Below, in pieces: positions 3,971-45,536 of a stretch of DNA of 45,536 nt. Source of the stretch: Escherichia phage vB_EcoS_WFI. The translations under genes were made by a program, and so were the position numbers. Positions within the stretch are counted from its first letter, which is position 1, and each line of letters starts with the position of its first letter. Location: the sequence record NC_073058.1; one strand, 5' to 3'. The notes below the pieces were generated by a model, which saw nothing but the letters and a program-made list of their open reading frames with translations, was not told the origin of the DNA and made no database searches.

Positions 3971-5113
3971 ATGCACCCTCAAACTAAAATTACCGACGAG
4001 CAATTGATCGCTGAATTGCAATCTGGCACTACCTCGAAAGATATTGCGAAGAAATACGGCATTGCCCTTCGAAATGTCTATATGCGCAAAGCCCGCCTGT
4101 CGAAGAAAGGCATTGGACACGGCAACGATGCTGTAATCCGCAAGCGCGTTGCCGATGGCTTCGGCGTTAAGCGTGTATCAGCCCTGGTGCGCGGCAATGG
4201 CGAAGAGGTCATGTCCTGGGTCATCACCGAGCAGGACAAGGAGCGCCAACTTGAAGCAATGCGCGCCGTTGTCGAGGGTATGAACAGCGAAATCACACCG
4301 GCAGCACCAGTGAGCGCTCCGCCAGTCCCGATCCAGGCGCTTGACCTGCTTAACCTGTATACCGTGTCGGACTTCCACCTGGGAATGTTGGCATGGGGCG
4401 AGGAGACTGGCGAAGACTGGGATATGGCAATCGCCGAAGACCTTTTCTACCGCTGGTTTGTCGAAGCCTTCGCCCGCGCGCCGGACGCTGGCACTGCCGT
4501 AATCAATATCCTCGGTGATATGGCCCACTTTGACAGCCTCGACGCCGTCACGCCAGCCAGTGGTCACGTACTGGACGCAGATACCCGCTACCAGAAACTG
4601 GTCCGCTACATGATTCGCATGGTGCGCAACGTGGTTGAACTGGCGCTGCAAAAACACCATAAGGTCAAACTGTTAATCGTCCAGGGTAATCATGATGAGT
4701 CCGGTATGATTTGGCTGGCTGAGATGTTCAATACCCTGTACGAGAACGAGCCGCGCGTTGATGTGGACACGTCCCCGGACGTTTACAAAATGGTGCAGCA
4801 CGGTAAAACAACGCTGTTCTTCCACCACGGACACAAAGCACGCTTTGACGCCATCGAACCGGTCATGATTTCTAAATTCAGACAGGCTTTCGGGTCCAGT
4901 GAGTACAGCTACGCGCACGTGGGCCACTTGCACCACCAGAAGATTGTTGAATCCCGCAACATGATTGTTGAACAGCACCGGACCCTTGCCGCGAAAGACG
5001 CATATGCGAGCCGCGGCGGTTGGATGTCTGGTCGTAGTGCTAACGTCATCACCTATAGCGCCAACTACGGCGAAGTAGCGCGCTTAACCATTAGCCCGGA
5101 AATGTTGAAATGA
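3971..5113 (+). CDS. calcineurin-like metallophosphoesterase with N-terminal HTH-like domain
   Basis: Phosphoesterase motif series DFHLG, GDMAHFD, QGNHDE, FHHGHK, HVGHLHH; N-terminal SKDIAKKYGIALRNVYMRKARL resembles an HTH. Confidence 0.6.
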   Translation: MHPQTKITDEQLIAELQSGTTSKDIAKKYGIALRNVYMRKARLSKKGIGHGNDAVIRKRVADGFGVKRVSALVRGNGEEVMSWVITEQDKERQLEAMRAVVEGMNSEITPAAPVSAPPVPIQALDLLNLYTVSDFHLGMLAWGEETGEDWDMAIAEDLFYRWFVEAFARAPDAGTAVINILGDMAHFDSLDAVTPASGHVLDADTRYQKLVRYMIRMVRNVVELALQKHHKVKLLIVQGNHDESGMIWLAEMFNTLYENEPRVDVDTSPDVYKMVQHGKTTLFFHHGHKARFDAIEPVMISKFRQAFGSSEYSYAHVGHLHHQKIVESRNMIVEQHRTLAAKDAYASRGGWMSGRSANVITYSANYGEVARLTISPEMLK

Positions 5114-5328: not shown

Positions 5329-5356
5329 CAGCCCGCCGATTTGGTGGGCTTTTTTG
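5329..5356 (+). terminator. rho-independent terminator upstream of the terminase genes
   Basis: CCAGCCCGCC-GATTT-GGTGGGCT stem followed by TTTTTT. Confidence 0.45.
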
Positions 5357-5439
5357 TGCCTGTTATAATCCCCCTTAGATGGCTGGGCCGTCTCCTATGT
5401 TGCCGATGGTCGGCGCATATGCATAAAAGGGCTTATATC

Positions 5440-5991
5440 ATGGCAGAAATCAAAGTTAAGGGCCGTCGTGCCAAACTGGACGGACGAGTAGCAGTTACCC
5501 CGCGCCGTAAACCAGGCGAGCAAACAGAACACACCAATCTTGGACCAGAGATCGAATACGGCAAGCGTCGTAAAGGCGGCAAATGCGGACGCCCGACCGA
5601 CTACCGCACCGTGTATTGTGACCAGCTTCGTCGCTATTTCGCCGATGCCGTAGCCTGGCAGATCAACTACTCCGACAAGGGCGCTGCGCAAGTCATCCCT
5701 CGAAACATGATGCCGACTCTCGGTCGATTCGCTGCAAATATTGGTGTAGGCATCGCCTGCCTGTATCGCTGGGCGCGCGCACATGAGGAGTTCGCCGAAG
5801 CGATGGCGGACGCTATGGAGTTGCAGAAAACTTTCCTGATGGAAGCTGGCGGCGTGACCATCGCGGCGGGCTTCGCTACGTTCCTGCTTAAAGCCAACCA
5901 CGGCATTCGTGACGATGCGCCGCTGGATGACGACGAAGATGATAACGGCGACGTCGTTGTGGAACCTACCGGCAAAGGCCAGGGTGAGTAA
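5440..5991 (+). CDS. terminase small subunit (putative)
   Basis: Directly upstream of and overlapping TerL (ATGA at 5991); basic N-terminus, acidic C-terminus; start at 5440 chosen over 5341 or 5419. Confidence 0.55.
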   Translation: MAEIKVKGRRAKLDGRVAVTPRRKPGEQTEHTNLGPEIEYGKRRKGGKCGRPTDYRTVYCDQLRRYFADAVAWQINYSDKGAAQVIPRNMMPTLGRFAANIGVGIACLYRWARAHEEFAEAMADAMELQKTFLMEAGGVTIAAGFATFLLKANHGIRDDAPLDDDEDDNGDVVVEPTGKGQGE

Positions 5992-16106: not shown

Positions 16107-16130
16107 TGGGGCCAGCACGGCCCCTTTTTT
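16107..16130 (+). terminator. rho-independent terminator after major tail gene
   Basis: GGGGCCAGCACGGCCCC hairpin followed by TTTTTT. Confidence 0.6.
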
Positions 16131-16146
16131 ATTGGAGAATATTACA

Positions 16147-16509
16147 ATGGCGAAAGCACCACTCTTCACACTTGACCCTAAGCCGACCTTTAAGCTGCCG
16201 ATTGAGATCCCGCGCCCTGGTGAGAACGAGCCGGGCAAGATGACCTTTACCGTCCGCCACCGCCCGATCGACGAGTTTTCGCAGACCATGCAGGACACCG
16301 AGCGCAAGCTGTCGGAATATGACGACAATGACCCGGACGGCTTTAACGTTATGGTTGAGGCCATCATGCACGTCGCTGAAGGCTGGAATCTGCCAGACCA
16401 ATTTAACGCTGAGAACGTCCGCCGCCTGGTAGTCAACTACCCGCGCGCGTTCGGCGTGTTCCACACCTCGTACTATCTCGAATTGATGGGATTGCGTGAA
16501 AAAAACTAA
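16147..16509 (+). CDS. tail assembly chaperone G
   Basis: RBS GGAGA; ends LREKN* directly over slippery heptamer A AAA AAC (16500-16506). Confidence 0.7.
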   Translation: MAKAPLFTLDPKPTFKLPIEIPRPGENEPGKMTFTVRHRPIDEFSQTMQDTERKLSEYDDNDPDGFNVMVEAIMHVAEGWNLPDQFNAENVRRLVVNYPRAFGVFHTSYYLELMGLREKN

Positions 16510-16823
16510 TTGAGGCGGCGCGACGCTTTTATGGCCCGCCGCCACCCTCCGAAGATGTAGCCGCAAGTTTATGGGGCGCGGCCCCCGAAGATGTTTGTCC
16601 GTCTGTTGCGCTATGGCCCGACAACGCGAAGATAGTCGCAGTCTTCACAGATTGCTCTACGCAATGGCGCACCGGATTCGGTGGCGCATACGGCATCGAC
16701 TACGGCGTGCTGGAATGGCTATTTAAGATGCACGGCATCGAAAACGAGCAACGTGCATTTAAAGATATAAAGCTAATGGAGCGAATCGCGCTTGACGAAA
16801 TGGCGCAACAAAACCCCGCATAA
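16147..16823 (+). CDS. tail assembly chaperone GT (programmed -1 frameshift fusion)
   Basis: Frame 0 is open from 16500 to TAA 16821-16823 and encodes ...VALWPDNAKIVAVFTDCSTQW..., recognised from memory as a gpT-like chaperone domain; slippery site A AAA AAC. Confidence 0.6.
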
Positions 16824-16828
16824 TGAAG

Positions 16829-17139
16829 CGGGACAAAACGGGACGTCCCGCTTTGTCCCGTTTTGCAAAACTGCATACTTACTCACTTTCATTGCATAAA
16901 CTCAAAGCGGGACGAGCGGGACGTCCCGATCCGTCCCGCCCCCTAAATGTGCATACCTATTCAGATTTCGTGCATAAAACAAACGGGACAGAAAGCGGGA
17001 CAAACATGGGGCGGGACAAAGCGGGACAGCACCCCGTCCCCGTCAGTGCTGCCGCGGGTTTCAGCCGATCGGGACAAGCGGGACAAACCCCAGTCTTTCA
17101 GACTAGACGGGGGTCAATGGCCCCCCTCGTCTGAGACTG
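16829..17139. repeat. iteron array (about 10 direct and 5 inverted CGGGACA units) ending in a ~50-nt imperfect palindrome; homologous to 45264-45421
   Basis: Visible repeats GCGGGACAA / GTCCCGC; palindrome CAGTCTTTCAGACTAGACGGGGGTCAATGGCCCCCCTCGTCTGAGACTG at 17091-17139; conserved block GGGGCGGGACAARGCGGGACAGCACCCC shared with the second copy. Confidence 0.7.
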
Positions 17140-17207
17140 AATAAGGTTTGTTTGAAATTCGCTGATACAATGTCAATCGGCAACTGCATAAAAAAGGGGA
17201 CTGCATA

Positions 17208-19853
17208 ATGGCAGATCAAGCAGCAGGCATCACGCTAAAGGCGGATGTTGCACAAATCAGAACGGCGAATACGGTGCTGGACTCATTCGCGCAGAAGTCC
17301 GAGAACACCGAAAACAAGGTTAAGAAATTAAACGACACACTCGGCAACACGAAAAAGGTGACGGGTGACGCCGCGGGCGGAATGGGGAAGCTGGCAACTG
17401 AATCGCAGCGCGCCGCAGATGGCATGACGAAGCAGGAGCGACTTGCCAACCGCTTAGGCATGTCAACCAAAAACCTCGGCTTTGCCTCACGTAACGCCGC
17501 ATTTCAGTTACAAGATATTGCGGTCACGCTAGAGATGGGTATGCCGGTGCACCGCGTCATGATTCAGCAGCTACCGCAGTTAACCGGGGCATTCGGAGGA
17601 CTGGGTAATACGCTGCGTTATGTTGCTGGCTTTCTCGGTCCGGTAGGGATCGGCCTTGCTGCGGTAACGGCGACGTTAGGTGTAGGCGTGGCGATTACGT
17701 CCCGCGCAGAAAACCAGGTAGCGGCGCTGAATAAGACGCTGGCGCTATCCGGTAATATCTCTGGCCTCACCGCTAACCAGATCCTGGTGCTGTCGGAGAA
17801 CGCCGAACGCATGGGCGGATCATTCAGCAAGACGCGTGACACAATTCAGGCACTGGCGGCAGCAGGTGTGAAAGCTGGTGCTGACTTTGGCGCGCTGGCG
17901 AAAGTGGTGAACGACTTCGCGAAGGTGTCTAATCAGCCGATCGCGGACGTGGTGGAGTCCATCTCCAAATTGTCCAACGACCCGGTGGGCGGATTGCGCG
18001 CACTGGCGGACAAGTATCACGTCGTTACCGAGGCGCAGGTCCAGCAGGTGCAATCCCTGGTGACGACGGGCCGCGAAACCGAAGCGGTGGCGTTGGCTAA
18101 CAAAACAGCCGCGGCGTCGTTCACCAGCATGACCAACGAGATCAAGTCCAACATGGGTACGCTTGAGCGGTCAATGAACGTCGTCACATCGGCAGCCAAA
18201 TCTATGTGGGATGCCATCCTGGATGTGGGCCGCGCGCAGTCCTCGAATGAGTCCGAGATGAAAGCGCGTGAATCCTTGCAGCGCATGACAACGGCCTACT
18301 ATGCCGAGATGAAAGCGGTAAACGCTGCCGGTGGGGTAATGACCGAGGCGCAGAAAGCACGAATTAACATGCTTTATAGCGAACTGGTCGCCCAGGAGAA
18401 AGTAGTAGCGTCACTCACCCTGCGCAACCGTGCTGAGCGTGACAACGCAAGCGCCGCGGACAAATCAGCGAAGGCGAACGAGGAGGCCAACCGCACCGCC
18501 CGCGACCGCGCCGCGTTCGAGAAGGAATTTGCCACCAACGCGCAGAAGCGCGCCGACGAGATCGCCCGCCTCAATTTGCTGAATAAGCGCGGTGTGATTA
18601 ACGAGAAAGAACTAGCCGAGGCGGTGAAGCAGGTCAACGAGCGCTACAAAGACCCCGCACCGAAGAAGGCGGCGGCTATTCGCGTGGATGCTGGTGTCAA
18701 AATGCTGGAGGTCGCACGGAGCGAACTGGCGCAGCTTAAGGAGTCCGGCAAGCAGATCGAGGCCAATGCGACAACGCAGACCCGCACGCAGCGCGCACAG
18801 GCCGCGTTGAATAAGCTGGTGGCGGATAATGAGCAGATGGTCACAGCAAGCAAGGAGCGCACACTAACGGCAGCAGAAAAGCAGCAGATGGCGGAGTTCG
18901 AGGCGGTTAAAGCAGTACGCGAGCAGATCGTCGAAGAAGCCAAGTTGCTGGACGCGAAAGAGAAGCAGATCAAGGCACACGCCCAGGTCGAGGCATTCAT
19001 CAAGAACCAGAACGCTGAGCTAAGGGCCACCGCTGCGGGCTATGCGCTTTCCACTCGCGAAGCGGCTAACCTGCGCGAAGAATTACAGCTAATTGACCGC
19101 CTTCAGCGTGTCGGCGCTAACGATACTGATATTGACAACGCGGTGTCTAAGCTGCGCGAAGTGCAGGAAGCACAGACCGGTGCTAACGCCTCGTTGTGGG
19201 ATGGCTTCAGCCGCGGGCTTAAGGATAGCGTGGATGAAATGGGTAACGGCTACACGCAGATGACGTCACTCACAAAATTCACGTTCGGCGCTATGCAGGA
19301 CACGATGAACAAGTTTTTCGAGACGGGCAAGCTGAGCGCGAAGGATATGGTTAAGTCCATCCTGAGCGAATTAATCAAGCTGGCTACCTCGCAGGCGTTC
19401 AAATCCGTCGTTAGCGCTTTCGGCGGTGACGGCGGCAAAAACGGATTGTTCGGCGCTATCTTCTCCGGCCTCACTAAGAACGCAGACGGCGGAGCGTACG
19501 CAGGAGGCAACCTCGCGGCCTATTCGGGGCAAGTGGTAAGCCAGCCTACCTTTTTCAGCTATGGCGTCCAGGCGTTCGCGAAGGGCGCAGGATTGATGGG
19601 TGAGGCTGGACCCGAGGCAATCATGCCACTGAAGCGCGGGCCGGATGGGAAACTGGGCGTTGCCGCTGCCGGTGTTGGTGGGGGTGGGATGATTGTAACG
19701 ACCAACGTGAACATGGGGACCGGTAAAACGGACACCAGTGTGAGCGGACCGGACCCACGCACCGCGCAGGCGTTCGGCAAGCAAATCACCGAGTCGGTCA
19801 AGGCTGAGATCGTGAAAGCGACGAAACCGGGTGGAGTACTTTACAAACGATGA
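17208..19853 (+). CDS. tail tape measure protein
   Basis: 881 aa, Ala/Gln/Lys-rich helical protein directly after G/GT; C-terminal Gly-rich region. Confidence 0.85.
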   Translation: MADQAAGITLKADVAQIRTANTVLDSFAQKSENTENKVKKLNDTLGNTKKVTGDAAGGMGKLATESQRAADGMTKQERLANRLGMSTKNLGFASRNAAFQLQDIAVTLEMGMPVHRVMIQQLPQLTGAFGGLGNTLRYVAGFLGPVGIGLAAVTATLGVGVAITSRAENQVAALNKTLALSGNISGLTANQILVLSENAERMGGSFSKTRDTIQALAAAGVKAGADFGALAKVVNDFAKVSNQPIADVVESISKLSNDPVGGLRALADKYHVVTEAQVQQVQSLVTTGRETEAVALANKTAAASFTSMTNEIKSNMGTLERSMNVVTSAAKSMWDAILDVGRAQSSNESEMKARESLQRMTTAYYAEMKAVNAAGGVMTEAQKARINMLYSELVAQEKVVASLTLRNRAERDNASAADKSAKANEEANRTARDRAAFEKEFATNAQKRADEIARLNLLNKRGVINEKELAEAVKQVNERYKDPAPKKAAAIRVDAGVKMLEVARSELAQLKESGKQIEANATTQTRTQRAQAALNKLVADNEQMVTASKERTLTAAEKQQMAEFEAVKAVREQIVEEAKLLDAKEKQIKAHAQVEAFIKNQNAELRATAAGYALSTREAANLREELQLIDRLQRVGANDTDIDNAVSKLREVQEAQTGANASLWDGFSRGLKDSVDEMGNGYTQMTSLTKFTFGAMQDTMNKFFETGKLSAKDMVKSILSELIKLATSQAFKSVVSAFGGDGGKNGLFGAIFSGLTKNADGGAYAGGNLAAYSGQVVSQPTFFSYGVQAFAKGAGLMGEAGPEAIMPLKRGPDGKLGVAAAGVGGGGMIVTTNVNMGTGKTDTSVSGPDPRTAQAFGKQITESVKAEIVKATKPGGVLYKR

Positions 19854-42345: not shown

Positions 42346-42375
42346 ATAATAGATTGGTTGCAGGTGGGGTGTCAA
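42346..42375 (-). promoter_or_regulatory. sigma70-like leftward promoter TTGACA-N18-TATTAT
   Basis: Minus strand reads GTTGACACCCCACCTGCAACCAATCTATTAT; about 190-nt leader to ATG 42149. Confidence 0.45.
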
Positions 42376-42492
42376 CAACTAATTTCAAAAAAAAAAGCGC
42401 CGAGGCAAAATGCGACGGCGCTAACCAATAAGAGACAATGAGACGTGATTATTATTACACGCGTGCGCGCCCGTTTCAATATACAAAAGGAG

Positions 42493-42521
42493 TTGACACC
42501 CTGCAATTTTAGGTGTAGTTT
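42493..42521 (+). promoter_or_regulatory. possible rightward promoter TTGACA-N17-TAGTTT
   Basis: GTTGACACCCTGCAATTTTAGGTGTAGTTT; the -35 flank GTTGACACCC...CTGCAA matches the leftward promoter; weak -10. Confidence 0.35.
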
Positions 42522-42552
42522 CGTTGGTCATTAACCAATAGGAGACAGAACA

Positions 42553-42882
42553 ATGCATATCAACGACGCTATCGAAATGTTAACTAAGACCGTAAGCGGT
42601 GAGACAAGCCGGTCCTGGGCTTATACCGATGCCGTTGGTGCGGCGTTATTTGAAATCGAACGCCTGCGCAGTGTCGAAAAAGAATTGCGCGCCAAGCTGG
42701 AATTACTCAACGGTACGGCAGCAAGCAAGCTGCAAAAACACAATGAAGAAATGGAAGAATACAAAAAGCAGGTTATCCGTTTACGCGACGAGGGCAAGTC
42801 CTGGGCGATGATTGCCGAGTTGACCGGAATTAATCAGAGCACCGTGCGCTCCTGGGTACGCAATAATAAAACTTCTAAGTAA
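42553..42882 (+). CDS. HTH-type transcriptional regulator (putative)
   Basis: RBS AGGAGA; C-terminal WAMIAELTGINQSTVRSWV resembles an HTH. Confidence 0.5.
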   Translation: MHINDAIEMLTKTVSGETSRSWAYTDAVGAALFEIERLRSVEKELRAKLELLNGTAASKLQKHNEEMEEYKKQVIRLRDEGKSWAMIAELTGINQSTVRSWVRNNKTSK

Positions 42883-42892
42883 GGCAACGGCA

Positions 42893-45157
42893 ATGAGCTT
42901 AATTAAATTCGCAGTAACAAGACCCGCTAAAAAAGGCGAAAAAGCCAGGGCGGAAAACTTCGAGATGACCACTGATGAGTTTTTCGAATTTATCAATGAT
43001 GCGAAAGAAATCTCCTCGGTGCACATCAACAAGACTGAAGATAAAGCCGAGTATGCGCGCCGCAAGCGTAAGGCCGATGGCATCGTGGCCTATACCAATG
43101 ATGGGTTACGCCGCAAGACCAGTGCGGTCGACCGCTCGATCCTGTTCTTCGATATTGACCGCACCGACACCCGCACATTACGCCGCTGCCGTAAAGCGTT
43201 CACCGACGCTGGTCTGGAGCATGTATTCCACACCACGACCGGCGACCGTCACCCACTGAAAGGCGGCACACGTTGCGCCCGTTTCCTGGTGCTCACTGAC
43301 AAGCCTGTACCGGCTGAAGACCTGGGCCGCGTCCAGTATGCATTGTTAGACCAACTGGGCTTGTCAGATGTGGACTTCGACGATTGTACAAAAGACACAA
43401 ACCGCCTTATGTACCTGCCTCACCAGCAGTCTGTCATAAAGTGCCACTACGGCAAGCGCGCCCGTGTCCGTCGTCTGCTTCGCCTGGCGGATAAGCTGGG
43501 AGTGGAGAAAGAGGAAGTGCGCCGCGAACTGACCCAGGGCGACGACGGCGTGGCGGACGGGATTCTGGATTGGTGCTTCCAGGCTGGCTTTGAACCACTG
43601 TCATCCGGTCGCGGTTATGAAGTGCCTTGCCCGAACGAGCACCTGCATAGCGGCGGCGGGTCGACGGCTATCATGGTTAAGGATGGCGAGATCCGTTTCA
43701 AGTGTATGCACACCGGCAACGAATGCTGTTCCGAACTGAATAAACACCAGCACCTGGCGTTACGTCTGATTGGTATCCCGGACCACTTGAACGTCGAGCC
43801 ACACAACATGTCACGCAAGCAAATCGCCGCAATCCTTCCGGGACTGGACGACGAGGAAGTGGAATCGTGCTATGAACATATTGTTGATGCGGTCGGAGAC
43901 GGCGACGAGTACGGCGAATGCACCGACGCTGACCTGGACAACGAGCCGGTCGCTCTGTTCAGTAAGCACGACCCGATTATCGAAGGCCTGGTCAACTTCA
44001 AATCTACCTGGTATATGGCGGGTGAGTCGAACATTGGTAAGTCGTTCTACGTGCTGGGCCAGATGGGCGCTGTTGCCGCGGGGATTCCGTTCGGTGGCGC
44101 GAAGGTCGTCCAGTCGCATTGCTTCTATTTCGATGCGGAAGGTGGCGAAGCCTCCAACCAGCGTAAGGAAGCATTGCAGATTAAATACGAGCACGACCTC
44201 GACAAGCTGCACATTATCGACCTGCAATCACGCGGCTGGGATATTACCAGCAAGTCAGGCTTGCGCGAGGTTATCAGCTTTATCAACCGCACCGCTAACG
44301 GGGAGCCGGTTGGCCTGGTGGCCTTCGACTCACTCAACCAGACTGTAGCGCTGCGGTCCGCTGATGCCAAACCGTTCGACGAGAACAACGCAAGCGATAT
44401 GGGTGAAGTGGTCAAAGCGCTGAAGTCCATTGCGGAAAATACAGGCGGCAGTGCGGGCGTCATCCATCACCCGGCTAAGGGTGCAAACGGCAGCAGATCC
44501 CCACGCGGGTCCGGCGCGCTTCATGGTGCTGTCGATTCTGCGTTCTTCCTGGAACAGCCGGACGATAATCAGCCAGGCCAACTCAACCTGTATCACGAAA
44601 AATCCCGTAACGGCATCAAGCAAGCGCCGCGTGGCTTCGTCCTGCTCAAGTGCAAAGTTAAGGTGGATCTCCGTAAGTCTGATGCGTTCGAAGCCCACCA
44701 GTCCACCAGCACCGGGCCAGACTTCGGCGATGTGGTTGCCGGTTGGGACGTCAAGCCAATTGCATCCACGCCACGCGACGAGACTCTCTACCTCGTACCG
44801 GTCGCCCTGGCACCGTTCGCTATCGAACAGGCTAAGGCAGCAGGCAAGGCCGCAGTTAAGGAAGAGAACACCGCCGGACCGCGCAACGAGAAAGAGAAGG
44901 TGCTTTATGCGGCACTGGAAAAACTGATGGAAGATAACCCGGACCATACTGGATTCAGTAAATCGGCAATTGTCCGCCAGGCTGGACTTGCGAAAGGTGG
45001 CACATCGACGAAGGCAATTGACGATATGGTGGAGCGCGGCGTGCTCGGGTTTTATACAGATCCACACACCGGGGCCATCTATGGGTCGTCGAATCTGGTC
45101 ATCAAATCGGATATACCCATCACGCTTTCAGCGACCGATGATGACTTAAAAGATTAA
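42893..45157 (+). CDS. primase/helicase fusion (primase-polymerase-like N-domain plus RepA-like RecA-fold ATPase)
   Basis: N-terminal ILFFDIDRTD and HVFHTTTGDRHP; C-terminal Walker A GESNIGKS and motifs VAFDSLNQ, VIHHPAKG. Confidence 0.6.
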   Translation: MSLIKFAVTRPAKKGEKARAENFEMTTDEFFEFINDAKEISSVHINKTEDKAEYARRKRKADGIVAYTNDGLRRKTSAVDRSILFFDIDRTDTRTLRRCRKAFTDAGLEHVFHTTTGDRHPLKGGTRCARFLVLTDKPVPAEDLGRVQYALLDQLGLSDVDFDDCTKDTNRLMYLPHQQSVIKCHYGKRARVRRLLRLADKLGVEKEEVRRELTQGDDGVADGILDWCFQAGFEPLSSGRGYEVPCPNEHLHSGGGSTAIMVKDGEIRFKCMHTGNECCSELNKHQHLALRLIGIPDHLNVEPHNMSRKQIAAILPGLDDEEVESCYEHIVDAVGDGDEYGECTDADLDNEPVALFSKHDPIIEGLVNFKSTWYMAGESNIGKSFYVLGQMGAVAAGIPFGGAKVVQSHCFYFDAEGGEASNQRKEALQIKYEHDLDKLHIIDLQSRGWDITSKSGLREVISFINRTANGEPVGLVAFDSLNQTVALRSADAKPFDENNASDMGEVVKALKSIAENTGGSAGVIHHPAKGANGSRSPRGSGALHGAVDSAFFLEQPDDNQPGQLNLYHEKSRNGIKQAPRGFVLLKCKVKVDLRKSDAFEAHQSTSTGPDFGDVVAGWDVKPIASTPRDETLYLVPVALAPFAIEQAKAAGKAAVKEENTAGPRNEKEKVLYAALEKLMEDNPDHTGFSKSAIVRQAGLAKGGTSTKAIDDMVERGVLGFYTDPHTGAIYGSSNLVIKSDIPITLSATDDDLKD

Positions 45158-45263
45158 ATTTTGCGCGCATTGGTTGCCATTTTGAGTGTTTTTAGCTGGT
45201 CGCATTGGTTGCCGTGTAGTGTGAATATAGTGAATAGTTATGCATTTTTATTGCATAAAGTAA

Positions 45264-45421
45264 GCGGGACAAAAAGCGGGACAGACAGGGGGCGGGACAA
45301 GGCGGGACAGCACCCCCGTCCCGCCCCGGATTACGCGGCTTGCGGGGGAGCGGGACAGGCGGGACAACTCCCAGTCTTTCAGACTAGACGGGGGTCAGTT
45401 GGCCCCCCTCGTCTGAGACTG
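45264..45421. repeat. iteron array plus ~50-nt imperfect palindrome, second copy of the 16829-17139 element
   Basis: GCGGGACA units; palindrome CAGTCTTTCAGACTAGACGGGGGTCAGTTGGCCCCCCTCGTCTGAGACTG at 45372-45420; flanking TGCATAA repeats. Confidence 0.7.
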
Positions 45422-45536
45422 CATAAAATCCTGGATTGCATAATGTACGGCAGTATGATGCGAATTGCGGTCGTTGATGAACTAGGCAACCAATGCGAGT
45501 TGTATTATGGTGAGTGAAAAATGCAGTTTGCAGTTA

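Follow-up and report, generated by a model that had tools for sequence, protein, structure and literature searches.

The tail operon of Escherichia phage vB_EcoS_WFI (NC_073058.1; 45,536 nt, the whole of which was analysed and is here called the window, all coordinates being those of the window) contains a stretch of non-coding DNA between the gene for the T part of the tail assembly chaperone G/GT and the tape measure protein gene. A sequence-only reading, made by a model from the letters and open reading frames (ORFs) of the window, had pointed to a gap of about 385 nt at a place where these two genes are normally adjacent. The insert, hereafter region A, measures 384 nt, and in relatives that lack the element the T gene and the tape measure gene are separated by 1–4 nt. 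Region A and its borders are organized as follows (strand given where one is assigned).

16132–16509: gene for the G part of the tail chaperone (Pfam PF08748, 4e-23)
16509–16823, plus strand: gene for the T part of the tail assembly chaperone G/GT (DUF1799; Pfam PF08809, 1e-20); its stop codon is the left border of region A
16824–17207: region A, the entire non-coding stretch from T to the tape measure gene, with 14 CGGGAC words and no conserved ORF
16828–16860: iteron palindrome 1, two iterons facing two inverted ones (−14.1 kcal/mol, z = −4.4)
16907–16939: iteron palindrome 2 (−14.7 kcal/mol, z = −4.3), words conserved
16940–16983: AT-rich segment with TGCATAC (16951) and TGCATAA (16971), a candidate unwinding element
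16984–17028, plus strand: four direct iterons, CGGGACA at 16984, 16996, 17012 and 17022 (spacings of 12, 16 and 10 nt)
17029–17069: GC-rich spacer with an inverted GTCCC word (17036–17040), its length kept and its sequence varying between genomes
17070–17085, plus strand: iterons 5 and 6, CGGGACA at 17070 and 17079
17091–17139: imperfect palindrome of 49 nt, a candidate hairpin priming signal (hairpin on both strands, z = −4.1)
17163–17171, plus strand: TGATACAAT, resembling an extended −10 and invariant in 16 genomes (putative function); the tape measure ATG follows about 37 nt on
17185–17208, plus strand: TGCATAA pair, 17 nt apart, the second overlapping the tape measure start codon
17208–19853, plus strand: tape measure protein gene, right border of region A (Pfam TMP_2, 9e-44; Tape_meas_lam_C, 2e-13)

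The sequence-only reading had counted about 15 CGGGACA 'hexamers' and had made its case depend on their number exceeding expectation. The enrichment is clear, with 14 CGGGAC words in region A against 0.15 expected when both strands are counted (Poisson probability 2e-23), although CGGGACA is a heptamer. Across the window, CGGGACA occurs 17 times (6.6 expected), 14 of these within 16829–17085 and 45265–45366, and TGCATAA occurs 15 times (5.9 expected), of which 8 lie within region A and its counterpart, region B, described below. The GGGAC words of both iteron palindromes are kept in 16 genomes. TGCATAA repeats flank the large palindrome, as had been noted, and the tape measure ATG stands in the context TGCATAATG. 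Region A is taken to be non-coding because no ORF in it is conserved among 17 related genomes; ORFs of 103 and 65 aa were considered as genes and rejected, their presence, length and frame not being conserved in the same set. One to three 'hypothetical protein' genes are annotated within region A in MZ234026, MZ234008, PQ850604, OQ589852 and other GenBank records, and are not conserved in relatives; judged by this comparison, they are probably spurious calls on repeat DNA.

The counterpart of region A lies directly behind the primase-helicase gene. It begins at the stop codon of that gene and runs across the junction between the end and the start of the window.

42553–42882, plus strand: gene for a small helix-turn-helix (HTH) protein (Pfam HTH_23, Sigma70_r4_2), upstream of the primase-helicase gene
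42893–45157, plus strand: primase-helicase gene, 754 aa, proposed initiator (Pfam AAA_25, 3e-19)
44894–45097, plus strand: coding region of the C-terminal winged helix, proposed determinant of iteron specificity from its co-variation with the iteron word
45158–45536: region B, first part, from the primase-helicase stop codon ('region B' in Sodalis phage SO-1)
45170, 45205 and 45486: GCAACCAAT sites
45232 (45232–45244): GAATAGTTATGCA
45265–45309: iterons 1–4
45318–45324: inverted iteron
45351–45366: iterons 5 and 6
45372–45420: palindrome
45420 and 45437: TGCATAA pair, counterpart of the pair in region A
1–103: continuation of region B across the window junction, the first ORF starting at 104
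45–50 and 68–73: weak sigma-70-like promoter after region B (TTGCAT, 17 nt, TAGATT), overlapped by two ATTGGTTGCA sites

CGGGAC is found seven times in region B when both strands are counted (Poisson probability 1e-9) and 17 times in the remaining 44.7 kb. Local alignment of regions A and B gave a score of 210, compared with 18.9 ± 2.2 for dinucleotide shuffles (z = 87), and the aligned span pairs 16949–17144 with 45230–45426 at 83% identity. The claim that the same architecture recurs 28 kb away, near 45264–45421, is thus borne out, including against the shuffled controls on which it had been made to depend. The AT-rich segment at 16940–16983 is homologous to the stretch of region B that runs from GAATAGTTATGCA to TGCATAA, and carries GAATAGGTATGCA on the minus strand at 16950–16962; AT-rich stretches read from the sequence thus lie beside the repeats in both regions (16940–16983 in A, 45226–45264 in B). 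Each region has six direct CGGGACA iterons, paired at distances of 12, 10 and 9 nt, and an alignment of 30 A and B copies shows no change in their positions. Within Dhillonvirus, the iterons and palindrome stems are invariant, and the loops and spacers vary. Two iteron palindromes (16828–16860 and 16907–16939) and the invariant extended −10-like TGATACAAT occur in region A only, having no counterpart in region B.

The large palindromes of the two regions (17091–17139 and 45372–45420) are nearly identical, differing in the loop alone, and both fold as a hairpin on either strand (z of about −3 to −4 relative to shuffles). In region A, the outer stem pairs CAGTCT with AGACTG, and the inner stem pairs AGACG-GGGGG with CCCCC-T-CGTCT. 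The palindrome proposed by the sequence-only reading was accordingly found, at 49 nt and with its near-identical copy in B, and RNA folding of 17091–17139, which that reading had suggested as a check, returned a stable hairpin (z = −4.1). Other lineages have a hairpin of similar size in the same place with a different sequence: the outer stems read AGTCT/AGACT, ATCATC/GATGAT, ATCCTC/GAGGAT or CTTCGT/ACGAAG, and the inner stems are rich in G. In region A of L109, a member of a lineage at 68% protein identity, AGACG/CGTCT has become GGACG/CGTCC, a clean compensatory change. A consensus fold of the palindromes from nine lineages, based on a MAFFT alignment that is not structure-aware, gave four shared pairs; the palindromes were instead folded separately and were stable in all lineages (z from −2 to −4.4).

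The genome represented by the window belongs to Dhillonvirus (HK578/SO-1-like). BLAST with 16780–17260 matched 157 phage records at 80–99% identity, nearly all of them Dhillonvirus phages of Escherichia, Shigella or Sodalis. With its gene order as in Sodalis phage SO-1 and non-coding DNA at its end that runs on at its start, the window looks like a whole, circularly permuted genome, in which region B is followed by small ORFs, lysis genes, terminase genes and structural genes. The GenBank record of SO-1, GQ502199, labels both stretches as repeat_region ('region A' and 'region B'), made of 'direct, inverted and palindromic repeat sequences' and resembling each other in sequence. The bare observation of the repeats was therefore already made in 2009, in that record. 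In the literature searched, we found no account of regions A and B in SO-1, HK578-like or Jersey-like phages, and no description of Dhillonvirus or Jersey-like replication origins; apart from the SO-1 repeat annotation, the case appears to be uncharacterized, although the type of system is known. Three sequence ends fall in or beside A or B: the window junction (45536/1), the ends of the GenBank record of Edwardsiella phage eiAU, and the end of contig L056, 426 nt after G. These ends probably reflect assembly breakage at a repeat present in two copies.

Every complete Dhillonvirus contig examined has exactly two palindromes, with 13–14 iteron words in region A and 7 in region B, and the search of related genomes for repeat arrays that the sequence-only reading had proposed recovered the two-region arrangement in each of them. 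BLAST had suggested additional copies, with '3–5 places per record'; these were discarded, there being two clusters per genome and the other matches being fragments of the same two regions. Mean identity is 88.5% among A copies, 85.3% among B copies, 74.6% between A and B of the same genome and 72.7% between A and B of different genomes. By these identities, the A copies and the B copies are two old, separate groups. In the Ioannina/g3101 lineage, both A and B have a derived 11-nt spacing of iterons 1 and 2 and a fourth iteron reading GGGACGTCCC, and these shared derived features indicate some concerted evolution of the two copies.

Region A carries the iteron word of its own genome in three lineages (GCGGGACA in Dhillonvirus and in L109, CGCCCCG in eiAU). 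It spans 828 nt in L109 and includes a reverse-strand extra gene there (4080–4445, minus strand); in eiAU (L008), it is about 1.1 kb long, with a reverse-strand gene (42365–42718, minus strand) and a block of CGCCCCG words. Serratia phage Smarc2, the T protein of which is 45% identical to that of the window, has a different replication module and no region A (T–tape measure gap of 4 nt), and no region A was found in L113, which has a homologous tail module (gap of 1 nt). In SE1, the one complete Guernseyvirinae genome scanned, there is a single iteron cluster, 3′ of the primase-helicase gene, and no second one. Region A thus appears to go with the replication module and not with the tail module.

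We compared the DNA 3′ of the primase-helicase gene in relatives ranging from 97% down to 43% protein identity, a set comprising Dhillonvirus, eiAU (Eiauvirus), Salmonella phage SE1 and many Guernseyvirinae-like IMG/VR contigs. In Dhillonvirus, Eiauvirus and most of the Guernseyvirinae examined, a module starts at the primase-helicase stop codon and is built on one frame. Its first half consists of two GAATAGTTATGCA motifs, three to four direct repeats, one or two inverted repeats and a spacer; its second half consists of two more direct repeats, an imperfect palindrome of 50–60 nt, the series TTATTCA..TTATGCA..CACGGCAGCA and a sigma-70-type promoter for the downstream genes. The promoter at this place matches better in relatives than in the window (TTGACA-N17-TATTGT in L036, TTGACT-N17-TATTAT in L037). 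The 12/16-nt spacing of the first three repeats is readable in Dhillonvirus and in the Guernseyvirinae sequence L036.

The frame is constant and the iteron word changes by lineage. The word is GCGGGACA in Dhillonvirus, including the lineage at 68% protein identity; ACTCGCAA in L024; GGGGGAGA in SE1 and L048; CGGACAA in L035 and L040–L043; TCCGACA in L036, L044 and L049; AGGGATAA in L037; and CGCCCCG in eiAU. Irrespective of the iteron word, the pair of GAATAGTTATGCA motifs, TTATTCA..TTATGCA and CACGGCAGCA are kept from genus to genus (seen in L035–L037, L044 and L048). The TGCATAA repeats belong to this conserved frame motif, which bears a loose likeness to the ARG box; compared by eye with the DnaA-box and IHF consensus sequences, neither TGCATAA nor the GAATAGTTATGCA motifs gave a convincing match. 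The binder of the frame motif could be either a host factor or a conserved phage protein. In L031–L034, L038 and L039, which share the winged-helix motif GGGRRPALKALAERG, the primase-helicase gene is followed by a terminator and reverse-strand genes, and L038 has a cluster of seven GGCAGCA words about 1.5 kb downstream of the gene.

What changes together with the iteron word is the C-terminal part of the primase-helicase. Between L048 and L035, the core (aa 1–640) is 96% identical, the C-terminal domain 46% identical and the iterons are different; between L041 and L044, the values are 98% and 51%, again with different iterons. Conversely, L035 and L041 share their iterons, with a core identity of 82% and a domain identity of 69%. 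L036, L044 and L049 have one iteron and domain identities of 68–83%, yet L041, with another iteron, is 98% identical to L044 in the core. The nucleotide identity of L048 and L035 falls at about codon 657, which is the domain boundary. In the Guernseyvirinae-like IMG/VR contig pairs L048–L035 and L043–L044, the cores are 96–98% identical, the domain and the iterons are exchanged, and the downstream genes are strongly mosaic. As read from these alignments, both pairs are natural cassette exchanges with a breakpoint near codon 657, and the C-terminal domain is the sole DNA-binding candidate within the exchanged segment.

Two other kinds of protein were considered as binders of the iterons and rejected. 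The HTH protein encoded upstream, which is Cro-like in its Guernseyvirinae counterpart, does not differ between L048 and L035, and hardly differs between L043 and L044, although the iterons of each pair do. Among the small proteins encoded downstream, no ORF within 2.4 kb tracks the iteron groups, and several are 90–100% identical across groups. In these comparisons, the iteron word appears to follow the winged-helix domain and nothing else that was tested, neither the core nor the upstream HTH gene nor the downstream genes. Of the two binders that the sequence-only reading had put forward, the primase-helicase is therefore retained, its winged helix co-varying with the iteron word, and the HTH regulator, which stays identical or near-identical across different iterons, is not.

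The primase-helicase is laid out as an archaeo-eukaryotic primase (AEP) domain (about aa 1–340), a RepA-type helicase (AAA_25, aa 357–531), a winged helix (about aa 668–735) and an acidic tail. Sequence profiles (Pfam, with which ten ORFs of the window were scanned) recognize the central AAA_25 helicase alone; the N-terminal and C-terminal parts gave no match in Pfam, and the whole protein gave none in NCBIfam. In a profile search of the PDB, RSF1010 RepA (1G8Y) was the sole sequence match, a weak one (E = 0.078), and a single-sequence search of the PDB returned three chance-level matches alone (E of 0.7–0.9). The structural model of the first 340 aa (predicted local distance difference test score of 82.8) best matches the AEP domain of cyanophage S-2L PrimPol (1.7e-5), ahead of RSF1010 RepB′ bound to initiator hairpin DNA (3H25, 1.8e-3). 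D87xD89, H120 and a Cys/His cluster (C246...H287) do not vary, in keeping with a primase that has a zinc motif, and the C-terminal model is a winged helix. The variable part of the protein among homologues is its C-terminal 100 residues. No RepC-like match was obtained among the ten ORFs scanned against Pfam, the binding domain being fused to the helicase; in the models, a single chain would join the activities that RSF1010 divides among RepC, RepA and RepB′. The acidic tail, DDDLKD (residues 749–754; 45140–45157), has D751 and L752 invariant in 34 homologues. It is reminiscent of the acidic C-terminal tails that tether T7 gp4 and gp2.5 to polymerase.

Taken together, the comparisons suggest, with a probability that we put at roughly 0.65, that regions A and B are two copies of a cis-acting site for the phage's own replication initiator, the protein encoded at 42893–45157. 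The non-coding DNA between T and the tape measure gene is most likely the second copy of the repeat-plus-hairpin module that follows the primase-helicase gene, and a replication origin site. In such a mechanism, the winged helix would bind the GCGGGACA iterons, the pairs of which are spaced about one helical turn apart, as the co-variation suggests. The bound subunits would then assemble the helicase and open the adjoining AT-rich DNA. Once single-stranded, the 49-nt palindrome could fold into a hairpin on each strand, as it does in silico, and the primase domain would start DNA synthesis at these hairpins for extension by the phage DNA polymerase I, a step proposed by analogy with the ssiA/ssiB sites and RepB′ of RSF1010 and with the stem-loop origin of pRN1. 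Region B, lying against the initiator gene and being the sole copy in SE1, would be the ancestral origin. Region A would be an older duplicate that has grown to 14 iteron words and sits in the tail operon with its own downstream promoter-like element; it may be a second origin, or a site strongly bound by the initiator that loops to B or stalls forks. The broader proposal of the sequence-only reading, that region A is a protein-binding or regulatory element and not spacer DNA, is supported by this comparative evidence. The options it had listed come out unequally: origin is favoured, transcriptional control is secondary and packaging finds little support.

Several points weigh against this origin interpretation. 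The winged-helix DNA and the iterons are adjacent, and linkage in mosaic exchange could explain part of their co-variation. The primase-helicase subgroup formed by L031–L034, L038 and L039 has no iteron module beside the gene, and region B of eiAU lacks the typical palindrome. Foldseek E-values for the C-terminal model are weak (0.03 or higher). Region A is no plain copy of B: its iteron words are twice as many, it adds two iteron palindromes and it lacks GCAACCAAT sites, so that its role may differ from that of B; its promoter-like element and hairpins are compatible with a transcriptional role. GC skew mirrors gene orientation and the direction of transcription and gives no origin signal, and we found no binding, replication or marker-frequency data for these phages in the literature searched. 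One variant, which we advance tentatively and consider possible but not probable, is that region A is a programmed initiator trap and not a firing origin, holding the primase-helicase in the middle of the tail operon. Such a trap could pair with B by looping or handcuffing in the style of P4 ori and crr, or could stall the first fork and bring about a switch from circle-to-circle to concatemer replication, and through it the tape measure and distal tail genes might be expressed in step with replication.

A different account makes A and B transcription control modules, in which hairpins end the upstream transcripts and the arrays bind a regulator that switches on the late genes downstream (after A, those for the tape measure and the distal tail; after B, those for lysis and the head). 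Both regions do lie at operon joints, the extended −10-like TGATACAAT ahead of the tape measure gene is invariant, and a sigma-70-like promoter with overlapping ATTGGTTGCA sites follows B. WF5505 also annotates hairpin 1 as a terminator, and in the window TTTT follows this hairpin. This label was not adopted: the T-run after hairpin 1 is absent in most relatives. Nor does the large palindrome have a T-run in Dhillonvirus, where it went unflagged by the terminator scan; the GC-rich hairpin with a conserved T-run that marks an intrinsic terminator is found at neither place. A canonical terminator already stands after the major tail gene (16108–16124), the repeat word tracks the winged helix of the helicase and not HTH regulators, and the link between the module and the primase-helicase 3′ end holds in three taxa. 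With these points set against it, we regard transcription control as an unlikely explanation of the arrays. Two-hexamer promoter scans of regions A and B returned no site, the extended −10 having been noticed through conservation alone. The hairpin at 16108–16124 (GGGGCC..GGCCCC, then TTTTTT) stands between the major tail protein gene and G, directly behind the former, and is the likelier point of transcript attenuation in the tail operon.

An RNA-level explanation, in which the palindrome and the GGGAC/GTCCC words function as RNA (affecting, for instance, its processing, its stability or antitermination, as the put sites of HK022 do), would account for the stable folds in all lineages (z of −2 to −4.4), for stems that differ between lineages with pairing kept, and for the single orientation of A and B within plus-strand transcription units. 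It leaves unexplained the direct repeats at helical-turn spacing and a lineage-specific word tied to a DNA-binding domain. The element is moreover a true palindrome that folds equally on both strands, as a DNA-level element would, and a role in DNA therefore fits better than one in RNA. The automatic consensus fold with its four shared pairs and the lack of an Rfam family at threshold (the whole window was searched against Rfam 15 with no match at gathering score, and a tRNA/tmRNA scan found none) point the same way, and we consider this explanation very improbable. Equally improbable is a selfish or decaying duplication, in which a copy of the origin, with no function of its own, came by chance to lie between T and the tape measure gene. 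The split of A copies and B copies into two old groups and the single copy in SE1 would suit it, yet no complete Dhillonvirus examined lacks region A, and both the 68%-identity lineage and Eiauvirus retain it; its spacers drift around iterons and stems that do not vary; its iterons outnumber those of B; and its word in eiAU is that of the eiAU genome itself. A and B might instead be pac sites bound by the small terminase subunit, arrays of repeats being typical of the sites that terminase binds, and the ends of the eiAU record, of one IMG/VR contig and of the window lie in or beside A or B. A pac site is expected in or beside the small terminase gene, which here (5341–5991) lies 5.4 kb away from B and 11 kb away from A; in Smarc2, a related phage, the annotated pac site is just upstream of the terminase genes; the repeat word tracks the primase-helicase domain; and contig ends at a two-copy repeat resemble assembly breaks. 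We rate packaging as the least probable of these explanations.

A further repeat, distinct from the iterons, is spread over the genome. GCAACCAA(T) occurs 20 times (2.1 expected), mostly as intergenic pairs 12–35 nt apart, at 41–48, 72–79, 3775/3798, 11231/11245, 30628/30640, 32543/32560, 39317/39333, 42354, 45170, 45205 and 45486, among others. The promoter-like site at 45–73 has its −35 and −10 overlapped by two copies, and the repeat is also abundant in regions A and B of eiAU. It looks like a genome-wide operator or promoter element, and is perhaps recognized by the HTH protein of 42553–42882.

Dhillonviruses and the Jersey-like phages of Salmonella are common in phage collections, including BASEL, and among therapy candidates. 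For these phages, the analysis yields a concrete candidate origin and names the domain proposed to read it, and the origin interpretation would explain why a conserved pair of tail genes is split by 384 nt of non-coding DNA. The natural swaps of domain plus iterons in near-identical helicases are ready-made specificity experiments and could supply orthogonal replication modules for phage engineering; if region A were indeed an initiator trap, there would be at least seven natural, mutually orthogonal initiator–iteron pairs on one fused IncQ-like replication protein. On a practical level, the two-copy repeat is a likely cause of assembly breaks.

The proposed duplicated origin has counterparts in well-studied systems. 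Iteron origins have at least three direct repeats at about one helical turn, which both A and B have, and an element-encoded DNA-binding domain specific for the repeats, for which the natural chimeras argue by comparison. Bacillus phage SPP1 has oriL within its initiator gene and oriR among the late structural genes, where it is flanked by transcription signals and has morons next to it (PMC6316719); gp38 at oriR is proposed to stall the fork and bring about the switch to concatemer synthesis (PMC6316719, PMC3485210). Like SPP1, the phage studied here has two candidate origin-type sites with the same, putatively initiator-binding repeats and an AT-rich stretch (PMC6316719), and the distance between A and B, 17 kb, compares with about 13 kb between oriL and oriR on the circular map (PMC6316719). 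Region A resembles oriR in its setting: it sits in the tail operon between an upstream hairpin and a conserved −10-like element that follows it, and has morons beside it in L109 and eiAU, where the reverse-strand extra gene next to the A iterons is reminiscent of the morons by oriR. Unlike the single chain described here, which is proposed to combine binding, helicase and primase, gp38 is a separate protein that needs the loader gp39 and the DnaB-type helicase gp40, and oriL lies inside gene 38, whereas region B follows the initiator stop codon. No sequence relationship with SPP1 was found or expected, no comparison with gp38 itself having been made.

The alpha protein of satellite phage P4 uses a winged helix to bind its origin repeats (PMC4234260, citing Ziegelin and Lanka 1995 and Yeo et al. 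2002). As in alpha, primase, helicase and C-terminal winged helix are placed in a single chain here by the domain models and Pfam. The P4 repeats are distributed over two separated regions, ori and crr, both of which are needed in cis, and crr is next to the alpha gene; the window has two repeat regions, A and B. However, alpha has a Toprim-type primase and a superfamily 3 (SF3) helicase in place of the AEP-type primase and RepA/AAA_25-type helicase found here, and given these different types the phage system is an analogue of P4 and not a member of its group. No long palindrome has been described for P4 ori.

A hairpin step of the kind proposed is known from the IncQ plasmid RSF1010, in which iterons are bound by a specific protein, the helicase opens the DNA, and the exposed ssiA and ssiB hairpins are recognized by the primase (PMC4234260). 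The resemblance extends to a RepA-family helicase (AAA_25, 3e-19; 1G8Y, a weak match at E = 0.078) and to a primase model that matches RepB′ (3H25, 1.8e-3), the primase homology being one of fold only. RSF1010 uses three separate proteins, which are fused here with a winged helix in place of RepC, and it has two hairpins on opposite strands, whereas the phage has one palindrome that forms a hairpin on each strand. In the archaeal plasmid pRN1, a stem-loop origin directly follows the gene for a prim-pol/helicase/winged-helix protein; the stem-loop has to be intact and the origin works when moved (PMC4234260). The authors of that work noted similar stem-loops after related genes in Bordetella phages (PMC4234260). 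The order is also shared, with the gene for a small DNA-binding repressor (orf56) followed by that for the replication protein (ORF904) and then by an origin in non-coding DNA; ORF904 differs in having an SF3 helicase, and the pRN1 origin has no iterons.

The exchange of domain together with repeats also has parallels. In lambdoid ori and in the rep-ori of Staphylococcus aureus pathogenicity islands (SaPIs), the initiator-binding domain and the iterons move as one unit, a specificity cassette that can be exchanged. Lambda ori combines four iterons with an AT-rich stretch and a palindrome, and the SaPI ori lies just 3′ of the rep gene. Lambda O needs the host DnaB via P, and SaPI Rep belongs to a different helicase family. 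We know of no second copy of either in a tail operon. Close precedents thus exist for the mechanism of a duplicated iteron-plus-hairpin origin module, and the placement in the tail operon is unusual for what is a known kind of element.

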